From Escherichia phage inny: 64,000 nt of DNA. Location of the stretch: sequence record MN850601.1; one strand, 5' to 3'. This document shows positions 11,446-63,065 of the stretch, in pieces (positions within the stretch are counted from its first letter, which is position 1; every line of letters starts with the position of its first letter). A program made the position numbers and the translations under genes. The notes beneath the pieces were generated by a model that was not told the origin of the DNA, searched no databases, and worked only from the letters and a program-made list of their open reading frames with translations.

Positions 11446-11521
11446 GGTTCCATAGCTCACTGACGAGAGCGCACACCTCATAAGTGTCGAGGGCAGGGAT
11501 TGTAACCCTGGGGAACCACCA
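11446..11521 (+). tRNA. tRNA-Met/Ile2-type (anticodon CAT), non-canonical T-loop
   Basis: hand-folded cloverleaf: acceptor GGTTCC/GGAACC, D-stem GCTC/GAGC, anticodon loop CTCATAA, encoded CCA; T-loop ATTGTAA (A54, T58) instead of TTCGAAT. Confidence 0.6.
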
Positions 11522-11552
11522 TTTAAAAGGAGGTGCTATGCATCTCCTATAT

Positions 11553-11638
11553 GCAAGTGTGGTGGAATTGGTGATACACATTGTGCTTAAAACGCAACGC
11601 TTAAATGATTGAGGGTTCGAATCCCTCCACTTGCACCA
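11553..11638 (+). tRNA. tRNA-Leu (anticodon TAA), type II
   Basis: acceptor GCAAGTG/CACTTGC, 3-bp D-stem, anticodon loop CTTAAAA, long variable arm, T-arm GAGGG-TTCGAAT-CCCTC, A73, CCA. Confidence 0.85.
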
Positions 11639-11640
11639 AC

Positions 11641-11746
11641 GCCTAGTAGGGTATTTGGTAATTCCGAGGCCATCAAAGCCTGAAAAATATGTTAGACCGT
11701 TTTGTCTAACTAAATACGAAATATGGTTCGATTCCATAACTAGGCT
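11641..11746 (+). tRNA. atypical 106-nt tRNA-like element (candidate anticodon TCA)
   Basis: perfect 7-bp acceptor GCCTAGT/ACTAGGC, D-like arm with GG loop, 4-bp stem with loop CATCAAA, extra 7-bp hairpin GTTAGAC-CGTTTT-GTCTAAC, canonical T-arm TATGG-TTCGATT-CCATA; no CCA encoded; too long for a standard tRNA. Confidence 0.3.
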
Positions 11747-11781
11747 CCCGATTTAAATAGTAATTTTTTAATAAAAATATC

Positions 11782-11810
11782 TTGACATTTACTTAGTTTT
11801 TTGTTATAGT
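11782..11810 (+). promoter_or_regulatory. sigma70-like promoter TTGACA-N17-TATAGT with extended TG
   Basis: -35 at 11782..11787, TG at 11802..11803, -10 at 11805..11810; 12 nt upstream of the tRNA at 11822. Confidence 0.6.
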
Positions 11811-11821
11811 CATTATGAAAA

Positions 11822-11903
11822 CGGGGTGTATCTCACCTGACTTCTAATCAGGCGTTAACCGAGTAATTGGAGTATGCAGGTTCGAATCCTGTCACCCCGG
11901 CCA
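11822..11903 (+). tRNA. tRNA-Arg-like (anticodon TCT) lacking a canonical D-arm
   Basis: acceptor CGGGGTG/CACCCCG, only 7 nt (TATCTCA) before a perfect anticodon arm CCTGA-CTTCTAA-TCAGG, 23-nt variable region with CCGA-GTAA-TTGG hairpin, T-arm GCAGG-TTCGAAT-CCTGT, G73, CCA. Confidence 0.45.
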
Positions 11904-11921
11904 AAAAGTTTTAAAAACTAC

Positions 11922-11951
11922 TTGACAAGCAAGATAGTTTTATGTTAGATT
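11922..11951 (+). promoter_or_regulatory. sigma70-like promoter TTGACA-N17/18-TTAGAT
   Basis: -35 at 11922..11927, TG then -10 around 11945..11951. Confidence 0.55.
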
Positions 11952-11966
11952 TAAAGTATGGTAACA

Positions 11967-12056
11967 GGAAGGTAGGGCGCAGCGGTGCGCAACCAGGTTT
12001 GAACCCTGGCCCATTGTAGCGATACGGTGATGGTTCGACTCCATTATCTTCCTCCA
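11967..12056 (+). tRNA. tRNA-Ser (anticodon TGA), type II
   Basis: acceptor GGAAGGT/ATCTTCC, anticodon arm CCAGG-TTTGAAC-CCTGG, 19-nt variable arm, T-arm GATGG-TTCGACT-CCATT, CCA. Confidence 0.85.
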
Positions 12057-12075
12057 AATTCGCTTAGGAGCTTTA

Positions 12076-12227
12076 TGAATTATAAAACTATTGGACAGAT
12101 TGTTACCGGAGTTAAGATTGTAAATAATAAAGTTGTTTATGAGTATTCTAATCTTCAACAATCTGAAGATGGTAAGAATATTCGTATGGTAAAAGCAGAA
12201 CAAAAAGATTCCGGTTGTTTTGAATAA
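12076..12227 (+). CDS. small hypothetical protein (50 aa)
   Basis: ORF track 12027..12227 starts inside tRNA-Ser; trimmed to ATG at 12076 behind TAGGAG SD. Confidence 0.3.
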
Positions 12228-12235
12228 TTAAGAAC

Positions 12236-12321
12236 GGTAGATTGGTGAAATGGTAGCCACAACAGTTTGCTAAACTGTCGTCGGAAACGGCGTGTAGGTT
12301 CAAGTCCTACATCTACCGCCA
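12236..12321 (+). tRNA. tRNA-Ser (anticodon GCT), type II
   Basis: acceptor GGTAGAT/ATCTACC, 3-bp D-stem GTG/CAC, anticodon arm ACAGT-TTGCTAA-ACTGT, long variable arm, T-arm GTAGG-TTCAAGT-CCTAC, G73, CCA. Confidence 0.85.
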
Positions 12322-12377
12322 AGTTATCTTTAATGTAGCTTGTTGCTCTTAGTTGCTTGGTGTAACTTTTTGGAAGG

Positions 12378-12439
12378 ATGGCTGCAACCATCTTACTTTA
12401 ATAGAGTAAACTTTCGGCAGATGGCCCCCACCATCTTAC
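12378..12439 (+). repeat. two near-identical hairpins (GGATGG-loop-CCATCTTAC), spaced about 45 nt
   Basis: 12378..12397 AAGGATGG-CTGCAA-CCATCTT and 12422..12439 AGATGG-CCCCCA-CCATCT; both followed by TTAC; stems resemble the T-stem of the upstream tRNA-Ser. Confidence 0.5.
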
Positions 12440-12491
12440 CGATACCTCATAGTTAGTGGTGCGAACACTGGCTATTTTAAAGATAATTTAT

Positions 12492-12567
12492 ACATCGTTA
12501 GCTTAGTTGGTAGAGCAAGGGGCTTTTAACTCCAAGGTCGAAGGTTCGAATCCTTCACGATGTACCA
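12492..12567 (+). tRNA. tRNA-Lys (anticodon TTT)
   Basis: perfect acceptor ACATCGT/ACGATGT, D-arm GCTT-AGTTGGTA-GAGC, anticodon loop CTTTTAA, T-arm GAAGG-TTCGAAT-CCTTC, A73, CCA. Confidence 0.8.
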
Positions 12568-12572
12568 AACAC

Positions 12573-12659
12573 GTAGGTATCGCATAGCGGCAATTGCTGG
12601 AGACTGTAAATCTCCTGCCCTTCGGGGCTTCGTTGGTTCGAGTCCAACTACCTGCACCA
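12573..12659 (+). tRNA. tRNA-Tyr (anticodon GTA), type II
   Basis: acceptor GTAGGTA/TACCTGC, anticodon arm GGAGA-CTGTAAA-TCTCC, variable hairpin GCCC-TTCG-GGGC, T-arm GTTGG-TTCGAGT-CCAAC, A73, CCA. Confidence 0.85.
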
Positions 12660-12666
12660 AATTAAA

Positions 12667-12751
12667 GATGGATTGGCCTAGTGGTTGGGCGACGGACTGT
12701 TAATCCGTGAACGAAAGTTCTAGCAAGGTTCAAATCCTTGATCCATCGCCA
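12667..12751 (+). tRNA. type II (Ser-like architecture) tRNA with anticodon GTT (Asn-type)
   Basis: acceptor GATGGAT/ATCCATC, 3-bp D-stem GCC/GGC, perfect anticodon arm ACGGA-CTGTTAA-TCCGT, 15-nt variable arm with GAAC-GAAA-GTTC hairpin, T-arm CAAGG-TTCAAAT-CCTTG, G73, CCA. Confidence 0.7.
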
Positions 12752-12830
12752 AATAGTGCTTGTAGAGTTAATAGAAACCTCTAGAATTTTCTAGAATTGT
12801 AGGTATCAAATCCTACCAAGCAAATATTTT

Positions 12831-12905
12831 GCTCCTATCGTATAACGGCTATTACGGTTGCCTTGTAAGCAACTTATCAGGGTTCGAGTCCTTGTGGGAG
12901 CACCA
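12831..12905 (+). tRNA. tRNA-Thr (anticodon TGT)
   Basis: acceptor GCTCCTA/TGGGAGC (one G-U), anticodon arm GTTGC-CTTGTAA-GCAAC, T-arm CAGGG-TTCGAGT-CCTTG, A73, CCA. Confidence 0.8.
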
Positions 12906-12927
12906 ATTTAACTCTAAAGGAGTGTAT

Positions 12928-13251
12928 GTGACAGAAAAAGAGTTAGAGAAATATTTTAATATCAATGTTTTCGATGGTTTTGATGATATTGAAGATGTTG
13001 AAAGATATTATGAAGTAGAGTTAGATAAGGATAACATTGTAATTCTTTCTGCCACTTATGATTGTGCATATTATGAAGGCGAATCTCACGTTTATTTCTA
13101 TGATATGAAAACATCTTTGTTTTATGAAGTACACGCATATCATTGTTCTTGTTATGGCTTAGAAGGTCAGTGGGAACCTGAAGAAATAGGTGATTTGAGC
13201 TTTACGGTTGCATATCTAAACAGACGTGGTGCATCTACTATTTTAAAATAA
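12928..13251 (+). CDS. hypothetical protein (107 aa)
   Basis: ORF track 12829..13251 begins inside tRNA-Thr; trimmed to GTG at 12928 behind AAGGAG SD. Confidence 0.5.
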   Translation: MTEKELEKYFNINVFDGFDDIEDVERYYEVELDKDNIVILSATYDCAYYEGESHVYFYDMKTSLFYEVHAYHCSCYGLEGQWEPEEIGDLSFTVAYLNRRGASTILK

Positions 13252-13265
13252 ATATTAAAAGCCTC

Positions 13266-13295
13266 TTGACAAAGGGGCTAATAATATGTTAGAGT
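13266..13295 (+). promoter_or_regulatory. sigma70-like promoter TTGACA-N18-TGT-TAGAGT
   Basis: -35 at 13266..13271, TG at 13287..13288, -10 at 13290..13295; upstream of tRNA-Gly. Confidence 0.55.
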
Positions 13296-13306
13296 AATAT
13301 TGTTAA

Positions 13307-13381
13307 GCGGGTATAGTGTTAATGGTAGCATATGAGGTTTCCACCCTCCAGGTGCAGGTTCAAGTCCTGTTACTCGCTCCA
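13307..13381 (+). tRNA. tRNA-Gly (anticodon TCC)
   Basis: acceptor GCGGGTA/TACTCGC, anticodon loop TTTCCAC, T-arm GCAGG-TTCAAGT-CCTGT, U73, CCA. Confidence 0.8.
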
Positions 13382-13480
13382 AGATTATTTAAATGGAATC
13401 GCTAGAGAAAATTTCTCTTTTCGCTCATGGTTTTCTCCTTCAAACTCTAGCGGTTCTTTTTAAGTGATTTTTAGTTTTAT

Positions 13481-13555
13481 TGGAGATTAGCCTAGTGGGA
13501 AGGCAACGGCCTTTGAAGTCGTGATGACTAGGTTCGATTCCTAGATCTCCAGCCA
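13481..13555 (+). tRNA. tRNA-Gln (anticodon TTG)
   Basis: acceptor TGGAGAT/ATCTCCA with U1-A72, D-arm GCC-TAGTGGGAA-GGC, anticodon arm ACGGC-CTTTGAA-GTCGT, T-arm CTAGG-TTCGATT-CCTAG, G73, CCA. Confidence 0.8.
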
Positions 13556-13562
13556 ATATTTA

Positions 13563-13638
13563 CAGTGCGTAGCGCAGTTGGTAGCGTGGGAGCCTTGGAC
13601 GCTTCAGGTCGCAGGTTCGAGTCCTGCCGCACTGACCA
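13563..13638 (+). tRNA. tRNA-Pro (anticodon TGG)
   Basis: acceptor CAGTGCG/CGCACTG, D-arm GCGC-AGTTGGTA-GCGT, anticodon arm GGAGC-CTTGGAC-GCTTC, T-arm GCAGG-TTCGAGT-CCTGC, A73, CCA. Confidence 0.85.
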
Positions 13639-13643
13639 AATTT

Positions 13644-13718
13644 GCAGAGATAGCTGAGACGGATTAGTGCTACCCTGAAAAGGTAGAAAGGATGGATCGT
13701 TACCATCTCTCTGCACCA
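13644..13718 (+). tRNA. tRNA-Phe (anticodon GAA), non-canonical T-loop
   Basis: perfect acceptor GCAGAGA/TCTCTGC, perfect anticodon arm CTACC-CTGAAAA-GGTAG, T-arm GATGG-ATCGTTA-CCATC (A54 and T58 swapped relative to consensus), A73, CCA. Confidence 0.7.
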
Positions 13719-13795
13719 GATAACACCATCCAAGGAGAATACTTGGTTAACTGTCAATAGCACATTGAGGCTTCTTACAGTGGTGTACTTATTAT

Positions 13796-13880
13796 GGCTA
13801 AGTGGTGGAATGGTATACACGATACGCTTAGAACGTATTGCCCCAAGGGATTGTGAGTTCGAGTCTCACCTTAGCTACCA
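13796..13880 (+). tRNA. tRNA-Leu (anticodon TAG), type II
   Basis: acceptor GGCTAAG/CTTAGCT, 3-bp D-stem GTG/CAC, anticodon arm ATACG-CTTAGAA-CGTAT, variable hairpin, T-arm GTGAG-TTCGAGT-CTCAC, A73, CCA. Confidence 0.85.
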
Positions 13881-13895
13881 AATTATTACAGGTTT

Positions 13896-13974
13896 CGCGG
13901 GATAGAGGAGTCTGGTCGTCCTCGCCAGTTTCATATGCTGGAGATCGTAGGTTCAAATCCTACTCCCGTTACCA
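13896..13974 (+). tRNA. tRNA-Met/Ile2-type (anticodon CAT), second copy, unpaired 1-72
   Basis: acceptor CGCGGGA/TCCCGTT with C1 opposite U72, D-arm GAGG-(11 nt)-CCTC, anticodon arm CCAGT-TTCATAT-GCTGG, T-arm GTAGG-TTCAAAT-CCTAC, A73, CCA. Confidence 0.65.
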
Positions 13975-14032
13975 ATAAATACCTCCCTTCTGGTGTAATG
14001 ATTAAATTACATTGACACTTCAAGGAACTCAT

Positions 14033-14115
14033 AGCCGGGTAGATTTAAAAGAGTATGGTACTCAATATGGCTCCAAACCATAGATCAGGGGGTTCGATTC
14101 CTCACCTTGCTGCCA
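14033..14115 (+). tRNA. tRNA-Trp-like (anticodon CCA) with expanded D region
   Basis: anticodon arm TATGG-CTCCAAA-CCATA, T-loop TTCGATT, G73, CCA; best acceptor AGCCGGG/CCTTGCT has one C-U mismatch and leaves about 9 extra nt before the D-stem GAGT/ACTC. Confidence 0.4.
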
Positions 14116-14120
14116 ATTAT

Positions 14121-14196
14121 TGTGGTATCGTACAGATGGTTAGTACACTCGACCGATAATCGAGAAACAACGGTTCGACTCCGTTTACCACGACCA
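14121..14196 (+). tRNA. tRNA-Ile (anticodon GAT)
   Basis: acceptor TGTGGTA/TACCACG, D-arm GTAC-AGATGGTTA-GTAC, anticodon arm CTCGA-CCGATAA-TCGAG (C33), T-arm AACGG-TTCGACT-CCGTT, A73, CCA. Confidence 0.75.
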
Positions 14197-25492: not shown

Positions 25493-26899
25493 ATGGCAAC
25501 TTTTCGTGATAAGGTAGTTTCCGTAACCCTTACCTACGGTGCTACTTCAATTAGTGAAACACAGTTTGATATCCCTCTAATTCTTACAGGGCATAACGTT
25601 ACTGGCAATCTTGTAGATTATTTCACTTCTTCAGACGCACTTCTGCAAGCAGGTTTTGGCACTGCCGATCCAGCTTATAAAATGGCAAAACTACTATTTG
25701 ACGGTCTGTTCGCACCAGAACAAGTTATCGTCGGTAAGCGTGATGTTTCTAAAACAACTCTAACTCCAGTAGTTGAAGATAGTGCAACTTACGTTATCAC
25801 TATTAAAGCAAATTCAAAAAGCAAGGACTTCAAGTTTGTTGCCGATGATACTGCAACTGCTCAAGAGATTGTTGTTGGTTTAACAGAAATGATCAACGCA
25901 GACCTAGTGTATAAAGAATTTTTCACTGTGTCAAACGATGGTAGTGTTATCACTGTAACTCCAGTTGCAGGTAAATACGCTACTATGGATAGTTCAGGAT
26001 TCACAACTAAAGTAGAATATGCAAATGATATCTTAGAAGATATTGCTAAAATTGCAGACTATGAAAACAGTTGGTTCTGGTTACTATCTGATTCTCACGC
26101 AGAACAAGATATTATCGATCTAGCAGGTTATGTAGAAGAGCACGATAAAGTGTATTTCTTCTCTACCTCGCAACCAGGTGTTCTAACTAAAGAAGAAGAT
26201 AACATTCTAGAACGCTTAGGTGATATGGGCTACAATAACACTTGTATGGCACTGTGGATGACTAACGCTGATACAGTGTTCCCAGAAGCTGCTGTAGTTG
26301 GTTCTATCTGCTCTGCAACACCAGGTACTACTACCCTGCATGGTAAAACCCTTGTTGGTATCGAGATTGAAAAACTTGGTCAGACAGCAGAAAACTTTAT
26401 CGTTCAACAGAATGGTAATATTTACCGTAAAGAACACGGTGTTCTGTTCTACCGTGATGGCTTCATGGTTAGTGGTTTCTATGTTGACTATGTGGTACAC
26501 GCTCTGTGGTTCAAAGCTCGCGTAGAAGAATCTCTGTTCGCTCTATTCAAGCAGCAATCTATGCTTGGTAGTGGTGTTAGAGCAACTTCTGCTGGTCTTG
26601 CTTTGATTCGTCAGGCTGTTACTGCAAACCCAATCCAAGTAGGTATTAACAATGGTTCTATTGCCAATGAGGTAGTAACTTCAGAGGAAACAGGACTTCT
26701 GGTAAGCCTTAAACCTACTATCTATATCCCATCTCGTGCAGATATGACTGATGCTCAAATCAATGCACGTTTGGTTGATGGTATGGTTATTGAATACGTA
26801 TATGCTGGATTCTTCCACTATGTTAAAGTGCAGGTAAACGTTCTGACGAACCGCACTGCAAATAGCCAGAATTCCAATAGCTCTACTGTATCTTCATAA
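25493..26899 (+). CDS. tail sheath protein (putative)
   Basis: 468 aa; position immediately upstream of tube and tape-measure genes; size typical of contractile sheath proteins. Confidence 0.7.
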   Translation: MATFRDKVVSVTLTYGATSISETQFDIPLILTGHNVTGNLVDYFTSSDALLQAGFGTADPAYKMAKLLFDGLFAPEQVIVGKRDVSKTTLTPVVEDSATYVITIKANSKSKDFKFVADDTATAQEIVVGLTEMINADLVYKEFFTVSNDGSVITVTPVAGKYATMDSSGFTTKVEYANDILEDIAKIADYENSWFWLLSDSHAEQDIIDLAGYVEEHDKVYFFSTSQPGVLTKEEDNILERLGDMGYNNTCMALWMTNADTVFPEAAVVGSICSATPGTTTLHGKTLVGIEIEKLGQTAENFIVQQNGNIYRKEHGVLFYRDGFMVSGFYVDYVVHALWFKARVEESLFALFKQQSMLGSGVRATSAGLALIRQAVTANPIQVGINNGSIANEVVTSEETGLLVSLKPTIYIPSRADMTDAQINARLVDGMVIEYVYAGFFHYVKVQVNVLTNRTANSQNSNSSTVSS

Positions 26900-57326: not shown

Positions 57327-59099
57327 TTAATAAGAACCAGCAGAAATATTTTCTGGGTTACTTGTGTATTGATCGTAATCGTGAAGTGTAGCTGTTTTAA
57401 TCTCATAAAAGAAACTACCTGCTGCACCAGTCTCTGAAAACTCACGGTTCTTTAGAATGTAGCAATATGTGCGGTTACGTTCCATAGGATCTTCAGCTTG
57501 TTTATCACGCTCCAGCGCAATTGTGATACCAGCACCTTTAGCAAGGAAGCTACTACCCATTGCATCATCTTCTACAATATGTTCATTACTATTGTTAGAA
57601 GACTTTTTAACGTGTGAAATTACAACAATGGTTATTGCGTACTCTTTCATAATGCGTTTCAGCCACGTCGCAAGTTCCTCTTGTTGTGACACGTCCATAC
57701 CAGAAAGCAAGTCAGAATAAGGGTCGATAACAAGAATGGTTACTCCGAAATAAATAATCATTTCCAGAACCTTCTCTTTAATCACATCTACGTTAGCTCC
57801 ACGATCATCACAAACATAGAAACGTGGTGTTCCATCTTCTCGTTCGTAAAAATCACGAATCTTTTCTTCATTATCTTTTAAAATCTTTTCCTTCTCTTCT
57901 TTCGTTTTACGGTGAAGAGGGATATGCAAGAATGAAGACAGTAAGTTACGAGAATACTTCTTATACGTTGCCTCCAAAGATAAAATACCAAGAGTATGTT
58001 CTGGGTGTGCAAGAATAATGTGTTTCGTAATCTCGTTAACCAACAGTGTCTTACCGATACTTGTTTTTGCAAGTATAACAGTAATTTCTTCTTCTACCAA
58101 GCCTCCACCTAACATATTTGAAGCAACACGCATGAATGGAGGAAGGGTGATCATTTTAGCTTCCAGGCATTCCAAGGCTGCTTCATACAGTACGTTAGAA
58201 GCGTAAACACCAGCAGGTGTGTACAGTTTAGCTTTGAAAAAGCGATCAATAAAATGATCAATTTTTCCTTCTACTAGTGCCTGGTTAGGATCTTTAACAT
58301 CAGTTAGTTCCATCACGTAAACTTTATTACGTGGTAAGATTTTAACACATTTCTCAACTGCTGCACGTCCAGCTTCATCATTATCCATACATAGAACAAT
58401 CTTTTTAAATTGGTCTAAGAATTTATAACGATGTTGAAGCTGCTTATGCAGAGATGTTTCGCCACAAGTACCAGATACTACAGCAGGAACAGGATATTTA
58501 CCACCCTTGTTATAATCTTTTAGCATCTGTGTTGCAGCCAGCATATCGTGTTCACCACCAACGATTAGAATAGTACCGCTGTGGTTACGATATTTAAACT
58601 CCCCAAAAAGATCACAATCCTTTCCTGTTTCACCGATAGGATGTGAGAAATCTTTTGGATCGATACGTTGTTTATACCCAGCAATATTGTAATCTTTAGT
58701 TGTAGGGTATAGTGTTGAAATTACTTCGCCAGTAGCTTCATCGTACATATAACGTACACCGAAAGGCTTAGAGATATCTTCACGAATACCGCGATAACCT
58801 TTTGGATTAGTTCCAGTGCTGGCTTTTAGTTTATCATGTACTTCTGGATTAAACTCACTACCCAAGATATCCTCCTCTTCAATTTCTTCGCCGTGTGCAT
58901 TTAACCATTTTTGATCAGGGATAGTAAAGCCACAAGAAAAACAATGTGCGCCTCGATGGTCTTCATCGGCATCTAAGCCATATACCATCAAATTGTTTTG
59001 TGATCGATCACGCCCTCCTTTCATACAACGAGGACACCCAGTATGTCCTTCTTGACTCAGATCAATGTTATACCCATATTTATTTACAACATAAGACAC
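57327..59099 (-). CDS. DNA primase-helicase (zinc-ribbon plus DnaB-like P-loop helicase)
   Basis: 590 aa; N-terminal CPRC...CFSC zinc ribbon; Walker A AKTSIGKT; Walker B-like VLVIDPYSD. Confidence 0.8.
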   Translation of the reverse strand: MSYVVNKYGYNIDLSQEGHTGCPRCMKGGRDRSQNNLMVYGLDADEDHRGAHCFSCGFTIPDQKWLNAHGEEIEEEDILGSEFNPEVHDKLKASTGTNPKGYRGIREDISKPFGVRYMYDEATGEVISTLYPTTKDYNIAGYKQRIDPKDFSHPIGETGKDCDLFGEFKYRNHSGTILIVGGEHDMLAATQMLKDYNKGGKYPVPAVVSGTCGETSLHKQLQHRYKFLDQFKKIVLCMDNDEAGRAAVEKCVKILPRNKVYVMELTDVKDPNQALVEGKIDHFIDRFFKAKLYTPAGVYASNVLYEAALECLEAKMITLPPFMRVASNMLGGGLVEEEITVILAKTSIGKTLLVNEITKHIILAHPEHTLGILSLEATYKKYSRNLLSSFLHIPLHRKTKEEKEKILKDNEEKIRDFYEREDGTPRFYVCDDRGANVDVIKEKVLEMIIYFGVTILVIDPYSDLLSGMDVSQQEELATWLKRIMKEYAITIVVISHVKKSSNNSNEHIVEDDAMGSSFLAKGAGITIALERDKQAEDPMERNRTYCYILKNREFSETGAAGSFFYEIKTATLHDYDQYTSNPENISAGSY

Positions 59100-59111
59100 A
59101 GGATTCTCCTA

Positions 59112-59381
59112 CTAAAATGATTCGTTTGTCTCCATAATATATTGCATTTCCAAATCTTCCATATGTTTCTTAAATTGGTAAACAATTTCCGATGGGGAAA
59201 TATCTATATCAAAAAGTTCTTTTGTACCAGAATAAAATCTAATACCATCAACAATAAGACCACCATAATAATCCCAATCACTTTCTCGTGAGAAAGGGTT
59301 AGGTTCTTCATAATAGTAATCTACTTCAACAATAATAGGTTCTTTATTATCTTGTTTATACTCAAAATCAAAAGTGTTCAT
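59112..59381 (-). CDS. hypothetical protein (89 aa)
   Basis: ORF track. Confidence 0.45.
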   Translation of the reverse strand: MNTFDFEYKQDNKEPIIVEVDYYYEEPNPFSRESDWDYYGGLIVDGIRFYSGTKELFDIDISPSEIVYQFKKHMEDLEMQYIMETNESF

Positions 59382-60325
59382 TATAAATCCTCGATAAGCA
59401 GTCTGCGGGTTTCATTTAAATCATCAATATTGTAGTTATCTCTTACATACTTAGCAAGAGCCAATCCCTTCTCAATACAAACATCAGGAGATTCGATTAA
59501 GTATTCTACAATATCTTTCCACTCTTTAACTGAATCAGCAAAGAAGATTAGATCTTTAAATTCTTCAGTATAATAGTTCTCTCGTGGTGAACAAACGAGT
59601 GGCAAACCTTTAGCACCAGCTTCAAGAATTTTTAAATTACTTTTGGCATTATTAAAATGATTATTTACTAATGGAGCTATGGAGATTTGATGACCATCGT
59701 ATGCTTCCATATAACACTCATAAGGACGAATACCTTCATAAACACAATCTGGTTGAATATCTTCTTTAATTTGCAACCATTGAGCACTACTTAACTCTTC
59801 GTGATCTCTACGAAATCCACATAAAGTTAAATCTTTACCAAAACCAGGAAGAATTGCTAAATCATGTTTATGTGTTTCACTTCCCGCCCAAACTAGTGGA
59901 CTTTTAGAATAACGGTCTTTCGTAAGAACAAACTGTCCTTCATCAAAAGGTAATCCGTTAGGCACAATATGTACATTATCATTGTATTGGCTTAATTCAA
60001 CCTTTAATGCCGGAGTTGTTGTAGTTACAAGATCGCTTCTTTCAAGGAACCATTTTAGGTCATCTCGGATTTGATTTTCAAATAGTCCTTCAAGCATATG
60101 CCCTTCAGGAATAATTAAAGAATCATCCAGATCCATTACCAATTTAAACCCAAGTTGTTTAAGAGCCAGGAAACCTGGCTTTCCACGTGTTGGTACTCCA
60201 TTGAACACAAAAATATTATGCTTAGGATTAATTGTCAGTTTGCGTTTATATGGCAAAATGATTCTATGAAAATCACATATACTATACTTTTCATTTCCGC
60301 GTGTGTCAAGAATAATATTAGGCAT
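59381..60325 (-). CDS. glycosyltransferase-like protein, paralogue 1 (GT-B-like)
   Basis: 314 aa; shares blocks with the next gene (VFNGVPTRG / VFNRVYSRG; KSNLKILEAGAKGLP identical in both; C-terminal YNxxDxNExRR). Confidence 0.5.
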   Translation of the reverse strand: MPNIILDTRGNEKYSICDFHRIILPYKRKLTINPKHNIFVFNGVPTRGKPGFLALKQLGFKLVMDLDDSLIIPEGHMLEGLFENQIRDDLKWFLERSDLVTTTTPALKVELSQYNDNVHIVPNGLPFDEGQFVLTKDRYSKSPLVWAGSETHKHDLAILPGFGKDLTLCGFRRDHEELSSAQWLQIKEDIQPDCVYEGIRPYECYMEAYDGHQISIAPLVNNHFNNAKSNLKILEAGAKGLPLVCSPRENYYTEEFKDLIFFADSVKEWKDIVEYLIESPDVCIEKGLALAKYVRDNYNIDDLNETRRLLIEDL

Positions 60326-60336
60326 ATATCTCCTTG

Positions 60337-61350
60337 TTAAAGACTTTCAATAACTTGACGACGCAGTTCATTGGCATCTGCAAGATTATAATTAAGACGA
60401 ACGTGTTCTGCAAGCATCATACCACGATCTTCTGTGTATCTAGGGTTCCTCATTAGCTTGACAACTTCATAATGCCAAGATGCTTTAGAGTCTGCATAGA
60501 TAACAGCCTTTGCATCTACCGGATTGAAGTACGGCAGCACAGGAGAACAGATAATAGGAAGACCCTTTGCACCTGCTTCCAAAATCTTCAAATTGCTTTT
60601 ACAGTTGTTGAAGTCATTATCTACCAGGGGAGCAATTGCAATACTGTGACCGTCATACACAGACATATACTCACCTAAATTTTTAATAGCTGGTTTATAC
60701 TGTGCATTTGGAATCTTACGTTTTATTTTAACCCACTCCGCAGTAGTTAGATACTGACTATTATTTCCAACAGGTGCAGAAGGATACACTTCATACCCTG
60801 CAATTGTCAATAGTGTATCATCAAATGTATTAGCTACAAGAGATAAATCAGGTTCGTGGCTTGCTCCTCCAGCCCAGATAATAGGCGTGTCAGAATTACG
60901 GTCTTTTGTCAAAGTAAATTGACCTTCGTCGTAAGGTAGTGCGTTTCTAATAACGACAACATTACGATTTAAATGACGAATTTTGTAAGCTAGGTATTCT
61001 GTTGTTACAGTAACAACATCTGCTAACTTGACCATCTCTACAATAGTCTTTGAGTGATTAGTAAATACGCCAGCCATATAATGTTCAGGATTAAGTGAAT
61101 AAAAATCATCTAAATCAACAATAATCTTAACACCTTGTGCCTTCAGGCGTTTAACCTCGTCTGCTCCACGAGAATACACTCTATTAAAAACTAAAACGTC
61201 TTTCTTAGGTTTAAACGTATTTCCAGCAAATGGCATTACAATACGATGGTAATCACAACCACTGCCTAACTTATTATCACACTTAAGTACAGGAGTATTA
61301 GGATTTACCATATTTTTGAGCCTCCTCATAAGAGATAAAAGTTTTACCAT
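60337..61350 (-). CDS. glycosyltransferase-like protein, paralogue 2 (GT-B-like)
   Basis: 337 aa; tandem paralogue of 59381..60325 with conserved KSNLKILEAGAKGLP block. Confidence 0.5.
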   Translation of the reverse strand: MVKLLSLMRRLKNMVNPNTPVLKCDNKLGSGCDYHRIVMPFAGNTFKPKKDVLVFNRVYSRGADEVKRLKAQGVKIIVDLDDFYSLNPEHYMAGVFTNHSKTIVEMVKLADVVTVTTEYLAYKIRHLNRNVVVIRNALPYDEGQFTLTKDRNSDTPIIWAGGASHEPDLSLVANTFDDTLLTIAGYEVYPSAPVGNNSQYLTTAEWVKIKRKIPNAQYKPAIKNLGEYMSVYDGHSIAIAPLVDNDFNNCKSNLKILEAGAKGLPIICSPVLPYFNPVDAKAVIYADSKASWHYEVVKLMRNPRYTEDRGMMLAEHVRLNYNLADANELRRQVIESL

Positions 61351-61984
61351 TGCGAAGATCCTCCAGTGATTGTTTATATTGTTCCCAGTTTACACCAATC
61401 CCCTGTTCTTTCTCTTCTTTTGACAGATTCGCAAAAGGTAAAGGATTATCTCCAAATACATCATCAGGATGGATAAACGCCATAATTCGAATAGGACATG
61501 GCACGCCTTGAATACCTCGGTTCAAACCTGCCAGTGGAACGCGATGAATCCACTCTGCATCTTCATATCCATAACCGTGGGTGTATGAGCGGAAATAGCC
61601 AGCTTTCTCAATAACTGCACGGGAATACATACCAAACTGGCACATACCTAGTTCCCAAATAACCACTTCCCCTTCAATACCTTTTACTTTATCTTTAAAG
61701 TATTCAGGCATACCAAAGAAATCCCAACCATTTTCCTTCGCCTGTTTTACAAAATATGTTTCCCAACCTTGAACAACAGGATAGCAATCATCATCAAAAA
61801 TAAACCAGTAATCATACCCTTCATCATAAAACTTTTTCATCAGTTCATTACGAGCATATGCAACACCTTTTCGTTCACGATCATACTGTACAACAAAAGT
61901 AGCATTAGGATCAGTCACAAGATAATCTTTAAGAGGACGCTTACCTACAGTAATAACACCAACACCAATTTTTGTATTTTCCAA
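61298..61984 (-). CDS. glycosyltransferase, GT-A-like with DxD motif
   Basis: 228 aa; N-terminal GVGVITVGKRP nucleotide-binding start and WFIFDDDCYP acidic motif. Confidence 0.55.
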   Translation of the reverse strand: MENTKIGVGVITVGKRPLKDYLVTDPNATFVVQYDRERKGVAYARNELMKKFYDEGYDYWFIFDDDCYPVVQGWETYFVKQAKENGWDFFGMPEYFKDKVKGIEGEVVIWELGMCQFGMYSRAVIEKAGYFRSYTHGYGYEDAEWIHRVPLAGLNRGIQGVPCPIRIMAFIHPDDVFGDNPLPFANLSKEEKEQGIGVNWEQYKQSLEDLRNGKTFISYEEAQKYGKS

Positions 61985-61993
61985 AATAACTCC

Positions 61994-62557
61994 TTAAATA
62001 ATTTTATTCATGTCTTGACAATGTAAAAGGTGTGAAACAGCTTTTCTAGGATCATCATTACCTAAACGGTAGGTGTGAAATAAATATAACCCACGTAATA
62101 AACCTAGCCTTTTGTTGTTAGCATGTAATGCTTTAGAGAAAATTATATCAAACTGTATTGACCTTTCCTCAAAAGGGATTTCATTCCACAGACTCTTACG
62201 AAAGAGAAGAAAGAATCCTGCTAAGATAGCATCTGTAGGTACTTCCTCTATTGAGTTTCCCCATTCTAGATGTGCTCTTTTTGCAATCTCAATGTGGTGT
62301 AATATATTCGGATCTTCACTTCTTTCATTATTAAATAATTGATATGTTGATCCCAATCTGTTACAAGATGCACCAAGAACATCAAAATCAGGATTTGAAC
62401 GGACAATTGATTCCAGCCAAGCAGGTTGTTCTGGAAGAAGAAACATTGTATCAATGTCTCTTAGGCAAATCCAACTATCTTCTGGTAAGACACTTATTGT
62501 GTCATTGATACCTTTTCCAATATCTCCAGAAAGATAGGGAGTTATGTGAAATATCAT
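61994..62557 (-). CDS. hypothetical protein, possible fourth sugar-transfer enzyme
   Basis: 187 aa; CLRDIDTMF DxD-like motif; co-oriented with the three glycosyltransferase genes. Confidence 0.35.
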   Translation of the reverse strand: MIFHITPYLSGDIGKGINDTISVLPEDSWICLRDIDTMFLLPEQPAWLESIVRSNPDFDVLGASCNRLGSTYQLFNNERSEDPNILHHIEIAKRAHLEWGNSIEEVPTDAILAGFFLLFRKSLWNEIPFEERSIQFDIIFSKALHANNKRLGLLRGLYLFHTYRLGNDDPRKAVSHLLHCQDMNKII

Positions 62558-62614
62558 ACTCCCTCCGTATTATTACTTTAGCATTTTTAGACTAAAAAGT
62601 CCAAATGGTTTTAC

Positions 62615-62809
62615 CTATTGATTACGTTTTGCGAGTTCCATTTGGATAGCTAAACTGTGATCTCGTGCTTCCATATACTCTTTATATGTTTCATTAAGAT
62701 GATCACAACAAACATCACGCAGTTTAATCAGTTTATCTGTAGGGATACCACTAAGATCATCCCAAGATTTTACAACTTCACCAGTATCATTGATCCCAAT
62801 GGTTTTCAT
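62615..62809 (-). CDS. hypothetical protein (64 aa)
   Basis: ORF track. Confidence 0.4.
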   Translation of the reverse strand: MKTIGINDTGEVVKSWDDLSGIPTDKLIKLRDVCCDHLNETYKEYMEARDHSLAIQMELAKRNQ

Positions 62810-63065
62810 CTACAACCTCCTTAATTGCTACAGCACAGTTTTTGCAGATACACTGCCCTTTACCTTTAGAAATCTGAATGTAAGGTTCATTTTCATTTTC
62901 GCCCTTACGTGAGTCATATATTACAGTATTGAAGCACACAACGCAAATATTTTTTAAGATTGTATACTTATCAACTTTCTTTTTTGTTTTAAAGTTAACT
63001 TCAATAACATCAGCCATCAGTGTAACACTCCCAGTATGTTGCTTTGTGACATAACCATAGAACAT
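62787..63065 (-). CDS. hypothetical zinc-ribbon protein (92 aa)
   Basis: ORF track; CVVC...CICKNC cysteine pairs. Confidence 0.4.
   Translation of the reverse strand: MFYGYVTKQHTGSVTLMADVIEVNFKTKKKVDKYTILKNICVVCFNTVIYDSRKGENENEPYIQISKGKGQCICKNCAVAIKEVVDENHWDQ

Follow-up and report, generated by a model that had tools for sequence, protein, structure and literature searches.

Four consecutive minus-strand genes in a 64,000-nucleotide stretch of Escherichia phage inny (MN850601.1; this whole stretch is called the window below) encode what sequence comparison and structure models predict to be soluble cytoplasmic Leloir glycosyltransferases (GTs), of which two are paralogues with a GT4-like GT-B fold and the other two are GT-A enzymes of the DxD type. 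The reading tentatively favoured here, possible rather than probable, is the cytoplasmic stepwise assembly of a short 6-deoxyhexose-containing glycan on phage proteins, most likely those of the virion, a reading in which the acceptor, the sugars involved and the order in which the enzymes act are inferred only. A sequence-only reading of the window had placed four glycosyltransferase-like genes at 59381-62557, and the four minus-strand open reading frames (ORFs) agree exactly with these coordinates, with folds, motifs and families supporting all four. As the substrate it had offered either DNA bases or host surface polysaccharide, a pair which misses a third option, the glycosylation of phage (virion) proteins, and it is this option that genomic context supports best.

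The two GT-B-like proteins had been described as tandem paralogues sharing an identical block. By sequence comparison they are true paralogues, with 41% identity over 324 columns (E 2e-81) and the identical block KSNLKILEAGAKGLP. GT-B paralogue 1 scored 26.9 bits against Pfam Glyco_trans_1_2 (cutoff 25), while paralogue 2 passed no Pfam threshold, its score of 14.4 lying under the cutoff. The AlphaFold2 (AF2) model of paralogue 1 (pLDDT 94.8) consists of two Rossmann-like halves, and paralogue 2 is predicted to share this GT-B fold from its 41% identity to the modelled protein. A Foldseek search of the PDB with paralogue 1 returned the GT4 enzymes ManT, PglA, TreT, GlgM, BshA and MshA (best E 1.5e-9), and also the protein O-glycosyltransferases SdgB, GtfC and Gtf3 (E ~1e-9 to 1e-7); among predicted viral structures (BFVD), the matches were GTs encoded by uncultured phages, by giant viruses and by archaeal viruses. 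PglA, MshA, BshA and ManT together with SdgB, GtfC and Gtf3 are thus the best solved-structure matches, but their identity to paralogue 1 is just 12-16%, and they differ in the EX7E region, which in the GT-B paralogues reads K-S-N-L-K-I-L-E without the first Glu; this canonical residue appears to be replaced in an arrangement of invariant K228/S229...E235. Sequences resembling ribosome-binding sites (RBSs) precede both ATG codons of paralogue 2 (61350 and 61311) and its homologues have 315-328 amino acids (aa); the real start is likely 61311, giving 324 aa.

The 228-aa protein, for which a GT-A-like fold with the motif FDDDCYP had been proposed, does contain this motif and by its sequence belongs to a narrow GT-A family, in whose alignment D64-D65-D66 and E141-D142 are invariant and R45 is nearly so. 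Its homologues exceed the Pfam thresholds for Glyco_transf_7C and/or Glycos_transf_2, and 351 mycobacteriophage records contain GTs with an N-terminal GT domain that it resembles. The TAGT family (PF20691) was matched with 24.1 bits, below the gathering threshold of 27.5, over residues 16-79 around the DxD motif, homologues scoring 20-22 bits, and there is a weak match to the PHROG of beta-glucosyl-HMC-alpha-glucosyltransferase. An AAGGAG RBS lies upstream of the TTG start.

The fourth, 187-aa protein had been singled out as DxD-containing, and in its family D34 and D36 are invariant within the motif RDIDT. It showed no match in Pfam, NCBIfam or PDB sequences, and matched PHROG 14179 with E 5.5e-113. 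Its AF2 model (pLDDT 95.1) resembles in Foldseek searches of the PDB the GT-A enzymes LARGE1, LH3, COLGALT1, RmlT (a rhamnosyltransferase of L. monocytogenes) and ppGalNAc-T (E 8e-5 to 5e-3), and on this model the protein is assigned a GT-A fold. At 50% clustering its family comprises 664 representatives; of nine members sampled, 370-660 aa long, seven contained TOD1/MUCI70, and some carried Methyltransf_24 or Glycos_transf_2 domains. PDB sequence searches with three of the four GT proteins gave no meaningful matches. None of the four contains a membrane or hydrophobic segment, and three are acidic (isoelectric point, pI, 5.2-5.6).

The cluster is widely conserved. Region 59000-63000 of the window is 98-99% identical to ~55 Justusliebigvirus (phi92-like, Stephanstirmvirinae) coliphage genomes and 60-80% identical to ~80 genomes of Phapecoctavirus and related phages. 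The window is a Justusliebigvirus genome, and k-mer mapping aligned it with phage PaulScherrer (Bas60) from ~134.5 kb through the genome end to ~52 kb. Since all four genes are kept in the same order in ~135 phage genomes, the cluster is not a product of chance. They are the counterparts of phi92 gp163-166 and of bas60_0048-0051 in PaulScherrer, are annotated in GenBank, in Bas60 as two "putative disaccharide synthase" and two "putative glycosyltransferase" genes, and carry a glycosyltransferase annotation in >100 genomes already. A dTDP-rhamnose glycosylation machinery has also been remarked on as a possibility (PMC7552041, PMC8594841), so that the suggestion of an undescribed system is half true, holding for the function and failing for the genes themselves. 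Five records labelled Campylobacter phage, A150, A145, D#, B15 and C3 (MG065639, MG065645, MG065647, MG065650 and MG065656), are near-identical to Justusliebigvirus, Phapecoctavirus or Vequintavirus coliphages; their host labels are probably wrong, and these matches were rejected as a sign of wide host range.

The genes are tightly packed, being separated by 9-12 nucleotides or overlapping, and each is preceded by a Shine-Dalgarno-like sequence. A promoter and terminator scan of the cluster found no informative internal signals and no terminator-like site between the GT genes on the minus strand. After the GT genes follow a small acidic ORF, whose start codon and the stop codon of GT-B paralogue 1 overlap, the primase-helicase and then the polymerase, and the GT genes are probably co-transcribed with these replication genes. 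In a metagenomic relative (locus L021), whose polymerase is 80% identical to that of the window, a syntenic cluster contains a fourth-protein homologue, an RmlB-like 4,6-dehydratase, a GT-A homologue and a single GT-B gene, again followed by an acidic small ORF, primase-helicase and polymerase. Its single GT-B is 48% identical to paralogue 2 and 42% to paralogue 1, and the GT-B duplication arose inside a sublineage. The small ORF of L021 encodes a weak homologue of the 89-aa acidic protein (E 1e-6) at the same position between the GT-B gene and the primase-helicase; membership of this protein in the glycosylation system is uncertain.

Judged by gene content, the genomic context of distant homologues favours phage (virion) protein glycosylation. 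In Cellulophaga phage phi18:2, gp39 contains the fourth-protein domain and is encoded between portal/MuF and protease/capsid genes, adjoining a Methyltransf_24 gene. A GT island with a fourth-protein homologue lies between terminase and portal/capsid in locus L013, a GT-B homologue immediately follows the large terminase in L020, and in L036 the GT-B homologue comes after four ORFs (566, 448, 221 and 431 aa) that fit a terminase-portal-protease-capsid series by size alone. Other homologues are located directly upstream of the small terminase, including a GT homologue with an adjacent GT-A homologue in L006, gp4-6 of Streptomyces phage KimJongPhill, beside UDP-glucose dehydrogenase and methyltransferase genes, and a GT homologue in L019. 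Some belong to more extensive glycan islands in which aminotransferase, epimerase, radical-SAM or Stealth genes also occur. The cluster-F mycobacteriophage GTs that resemble the GT-A enzyme, for example ShowerHandel gp103, are encoded at the locus which in Che8 holds gp108-110.

A word-indexed protein search for GT-B relatives yielded 57 clusters only, and the motif KS[NE]LK[IVT]LE retrieved >552 relatives from IMG/VR (loci L022-L101). A single 55%-identity cluster accounts for 50 of the 75 more distant IMG/VR loci analysed. Neighbours were counted in 13 dereplicated loci, within 5-6 ORFs, with 25 of 79 Pfam families listed. The commonest were GT2 enzymes (5), hexapeptide acyltransferases (4) and portal proteins (4), followed by three TerL domains with two members each, capsid (2) and prohead protease (2).

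The only named bacterial GT-B homologue (411 aa) was found in Burkholderia dolosa contig JAIMDN010000082.1 (L004 3025-8440). Its gene overlaps the end of an unannotated 571-aa gene, which itself comes after an intimin/invasin-type inverse autotransporter, an arrangement hinting at adhesin glycosylation. A link between this intimin-like adhesin and the tail fibre of the phage, which contains Big_2, was dismissed as too weak, consisting of one short Ig-domain match (E 0.003).

A pathway that could supply the sugar donor, RmlABCD, is encoded by most of the genus. In PaulScherrer, each of RmlA, B, C and D exceeds its NCBIfam equivalog cutoff, and rmlABCD lies ~70 kb from the GT genes, outside the window, with ribonucleotide reductase, glutaredoxin, thymidine kinase and thymidylate synthase genes as neighbours. 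In the phage collection, RmlA gave 54 records at >=95% identity and 72 at 60-80%, and the GT cluster 53 and 79, respectively. RmlA and the GT genes thus occur together often, though not in every phage. As they share identity bands and a dehydratase gene is located inside the L021 GT cluster, a 6-deoxyhexose donor is plausible as far as the genes tell.

Under the favoured reading, the enzymes would work one after another and provide phage proteins, most probably those exposed on the virion, with a short oligosaccharide before assembly or in its course. One of them would couple the initial sugar to the protein, and the rest would lengthen the chain; at least one would probably use dTDP-L-rhamnose or another 6-deoxyhexose, supplied in most of the genus by the RmlABCD of the phage itself, ~70 kb away. 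The process would be akin to virion glycosylation in Che8 and to capsid glycosylation in giant viruses. Che8, Corndog and Myrna add glycans to the proteins of their capsids and tail tubes (Freeman 2023, as reported in PMC12363180 and PMC11256854), and they share with the window several soluble GTs encoded outside the structural operon and GT2-type GT-A domains. For Che8 the likeness extends to gp108, a GT2+TylF fusion, since the families of the window are elsewhere associated with Methyltransf_24/TylF-type methyltransferases, and to the resemblance of the GT-A enzyme to GTs that other cluster-F phages encode at the syntenic locus in the right arm. In contrast to Che8, the present system, as predicted from its genes, has two GT-B enzymes, a dedicated RmlABCD in the genus, a Gram-negative host and a myovirus as its carrier, and its proteins lack significant similarity to gp108, gp109 and gp110. 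The giant viruses PBCV-1 (a chlorovirus) and Mimivirus, whose capsids and fibrils are glycosylated (PMC9614988, PMC7826918), likewise encode GTs together with a nucleotide-sugar pathway of the rhamnose type; giant-virus GTs make up many of the viral fold matches listed for GT-B paralogue 1, and homologues fused to GT or methyltransferase domains recall their multidomain enzymes. The differences are that the carrier here is a bacteriophage, that the donor would be dTDP-Rha instead of UDP-Rha, and that homology exists at the fold level only.

Several observations weigh against glycosylation of virion proteins. The GT cluster is part of the replication operon of this phage, outside its late structural operon, and the literature searched contained no report of glycosylated virions of phi92-like or any E. 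coli phages. Comparison of the GT proteins with Che8 gp108, gp109 and gp110 gave BLASTP E values >=0.4 and hhalign probabilities <1%, and direct homology to gp108-110 was rejected. About 29 GT-positive phages, including Klebsiella ones, have no RmlA match. The neighbours in the 13 IMG/VR loci also include ParB_N (2), VRR_NUC (2), one C5 DNA methylase and one QueC, and because DNA-modification genes, too, are common just upstream of the small terminase, the context at that position is ambiguous. Ser/Thr-rich C-terminal tails were considered as a glycosylation signature on structural proteins, with the S/N-rich low-complexity tail of the sheath protein (NRTANSQNSNSSTVSS) as the proxy, and were dismissed as uninformative for lack of correlation with GT presence: the tail is specific to Justusliebigvirus and truncated in GT-bearing Phapecoctavirus, while sheaths of Vequintavirus and Mydovirus, neither of them among the listed GT matches, end in other S/T-rich tails (tblastn masked the sheath tail as low complexity). 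Finally, validated phage DNA GT-B enzymes, too, have BshA, MshA and PglH as top PDB matches (10.1101/2023.12.21.572611), so a GT4-like fold does not rule out DNA.

The absence of a visible hydroxymethylase, pointed out earlier for the window, was borne out when 70 non-structural ORFs (130-520 aa) of the window and the rest of the PaulScherrer genome were scanned with Pfam: neither Thymidylat_synt nor Tet_JBP was among the families listed, at most 25 per set of ORFs, of which one set gave exactly 25 and could hide weak single-member matches. As to base-modifying enzymes, for which the sequence-only reading had proposed a search of the remaining genome, the scan returned a C5 and an N6/N4 methylase. 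The gene annotated as thymidylate synthase, the only one of this kind in the genus (bas60_0224, L003 9025-9996, minus strand) encodes a divergent ThyX-type protein (Pfam Thy1), which scores 35.5 bits against TIGR02170 (cutoff 87.9) over part of its 323 aa.

That the enzymes instead put sugars, possibly rhamnose, on a modified base of phage DNA for nuclease protection, either genome-wide as in T-even phages or motif-limited as in methyltransferase/5mYOX/GT pathways, is rather improbable. The cluster does lie directly upstream of the primase-helicase (Toprim+DnaB_C) and DNA polymerase (DNA_pol_A) genes, as had been stated, in a synteny kept in Phapecoctavirus and L021; the rmlABCD genes are located among those for nucleotide metabolism, the genus encodes a Dcm-like C5 methyltransferase, and Olsen et al. 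proposed that hydroxymethylated nucleotides become rhamnosylated (PMC7552041). Beyond this remark and a second speculative one (PMC8594841), the literature search gave nothing on DNA modification in the genus and no nucleoside MS data. T4 alpha- and beta-glucosyltransferases resemble the present enzymes in that they are phage-encoded soluble GT-B proteins among DNA-metabolism genes, and a multi-GT set could build di- or oligosaccharides on DNA. However, no ThyA-fold hydroxymethylase or dCTPase-type supply was found in the ORFs scanned, Pfam, NCBIfam and PDB sequence searches detected no similarity of the GT proteins to either T4 enzyme, and the fold comparison that had been suggested placed neither of them in the top 50 PDB or BFVD matches of GT-B paralogue 1. 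The acidity of three of the enzymes also argues against a DNA substrate. Parallels also exist with the 5mYOX-associated, TAGT- and JGT-like DNA GTs (Pyle et al., 10.1101/2023.12.21.572611), namely the R...DDD...ED pattern of the GT-A enzyme, with its TAGT and beta-glucosyl-HMC-alpha-glucosyltransferase matches, the BshA, MshA and Pgl matches of the GT-B fold, successive GT genes, associated epimerase/dehydratase genes and a C5 methyltransferase in the genome. Against these stand a TAGT match below threshold and confined to the region around the DxD motif, a Dcm-like methyltransferase gene ~60 kb from the GT genes, the lack of any 5mYOX detected in the window or the scanned genus ORFs (a very divergent dioxygenase being possible), and the absence of phi92-like and phAPEC8-like names from one supplementary file of the study mining DNA-GT homologues. 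The phi92-like phages Bas60-62 were found "exceptionally susceptible" to six restriction-modification systems of types I, II and III (Maffei et al., PMC8594841), which excludes a genome-wide replacement of C or T and disfavours the earlier idea of base glycosylation against restriction; these data bear on genome-wide modification only, not on motif-limited modification. Glycosylation of a nucleic acid without a hydroxymethyl-pyrimidine, for instance by motif-limited DNA rhamnosylation or on the tRNAs of the phage, is very improbable.

Somewhat less doubtful than DNA, although still unlikely, is another cytoplasmic acceptor, such as proteins of the host or non-structural proteins of the phage, a small molecule, or RNA, for example the phage's own tRNAs; with host proteins the outcome would be host takeover, comparable to bacterial glycosylating effectors or EarP. 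The enzymes are predicted to be soluble and, by gene layout, to be expressed from the replication operon, the position of the B. dolosa homologue by an intimin/invasin-type adhesin suggests protein acceptors in general, and the window carries 15 tRNA genes, including those for Tyr and Asn. Eukaryotic queuosine glycosyltransferases are GT4 and GT2 enzymes, which also counts in favour of RNA. However, four transferases with a dedicated sugar-nucleotide pathway suggest that an oligosaccharide is built and not just one regulatory sugar added, the contexts of the homologues give no pointer to translation factors or RNA modification apart from the one QueC neighbour, and no single acceptor of this kind is specifically supported. 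As improbable as the modification of a DNA base is that of host envelope glycans or lipid-linked intermediates (lipopolysaccharide (LPS) core, O-antigen, enterobacterial common antigen, NGR glycan or capsule), which would serve to block superinfection, to prevent re-adsorption of progeny to debris or to divert host sugar pools. The closest solved structures of GT-B paralogue 1 include PglA, PimB', MshA and BshA, whose acceptors are lipid-linked or small molecules, the GT-A enzymes matched by the fourth protein include K4 chondroitin polymerase and RmlT, which adds rhamnose to wall teichoic acid, and these phages recognise the surface glycans NGR and LPS core (PMC8594841, PMC11990801). Yet no positive evidence was obtained for the host surface polysaccharide proposed earlier: all four proteins lack membrane segments, a flippase, polymerase or partner of the GtrA/B type was seen neither in the cluster nor among the families listed for the 70 genus ORFs scanned, and homologues in unrelated phages are found within head modules and not beside lysis or lysogeny genes. 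To our knowledge, phage systems that modify the envelope are those of temperate phages, and surface molecules already in place could hardly be replaced in the short time of a lytic cycle; both points were counted against a host envelope acceptor.

Features of the window discussed in the text (coordinates are those of the whole window).
Feature	Coordinates	Strand	Remarks
Small GT-A-fold glycosyltransferase (predicted), 187 aa, cluster gene 1	61994..62557	-	phi92 gp166 orthologue; PHROG 14179; strong RBS
GT-A glycosyltransferase (predicted), 228 aa, TTG start	61298..61984	-	DDD and YG(Y/F)ED motifs; PHROG 2456
GT-B paralogue 2 (predicted), 337 aa (324 aa from 61311)	60337..61350	-	PHROG 7162
GT-B paralogue 1 (predicted), 314 aa	59381..60325	-	GT4-like fold; PHROG 7162; Pfam Glyco_trans_1_2
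Very acidic 89-aa protein	59112..59381	-	pI 4.1; PHROG 4240 (function unknown)
Primase-helicase	57327-59099	-	Toprim+DnaB_C
Family-A DNA polymerase, 859 aa	54251-56830	-	DNA_pol_A
Sheath protein	25493-26899	+	S/N-rich low-complexity C-terminal tail NRTANSQNSNSSTVSS at 26846-26896
tRNA cluster	11446-14196	+	15 genes, including two tRNA-Met, Tyr and Asn
Hydrolase_2 protein, 169 aa	63306-63815	-	Hydrophobic N-terminal leader and Hydrolase_2 (SleB-like cell-wall hydrolase) domain

Other genes in the vicinity were recorded as well. The Hydrolase_2 gene shares the strand of the GT cluster and is located ~750 bp upstream of it, three small ORFs separating the two, and its product is distinct from the endolysin annotated elsewhere in the genus. 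The window polymerase has no intein; for its orthologue in PaulScherrer, an intein insertion of 735 bp is annotated. Past the right end of the window, PaulScherrer carries the tellurite-resistance-like genes of the genus, TelA, TerC and vWA-TerF-like (L001 ~24.9-36.5 kb), accompanied by ComF-like PRTase, HAD hydrolase, macro, NADAR and CapR domains. In L021 (1026-8773), TelA, vWA-TerF, TerD and PRTase_3 genes are found just upstream of the GT cluster.

Should the favoured reading, a short glycan on virion proteins, be true, no phage of a Gram-negative host would have been shown to build its own glycan coat before the phi92-like and phAPEC8-like ones, which would do this with a rhamnose supply of their own. 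The glycans on mycobacteriophage virions shield the particles from antibodies. Justusliebigvirus phages have been characterised in several reports for use against pathogenic E. coli. Because of this shielding and this intended use, a glycan coat would bear on immunogenicity, on differences between production hosts and on virion stability. If DNA or a host glycan proved to be the acceptor, a new variant of those known strategies would be at hand, and glycosylation of a nucleic acid without a hydroxymethyl-pyrimidine would amount to a new nucleic-acid modification chemistry, invisible to standard restriction panels. Assignment of the acceptor of the GT-B enzymes would inform the annotation of many viral genes, given the size of the family in IMG/VR.

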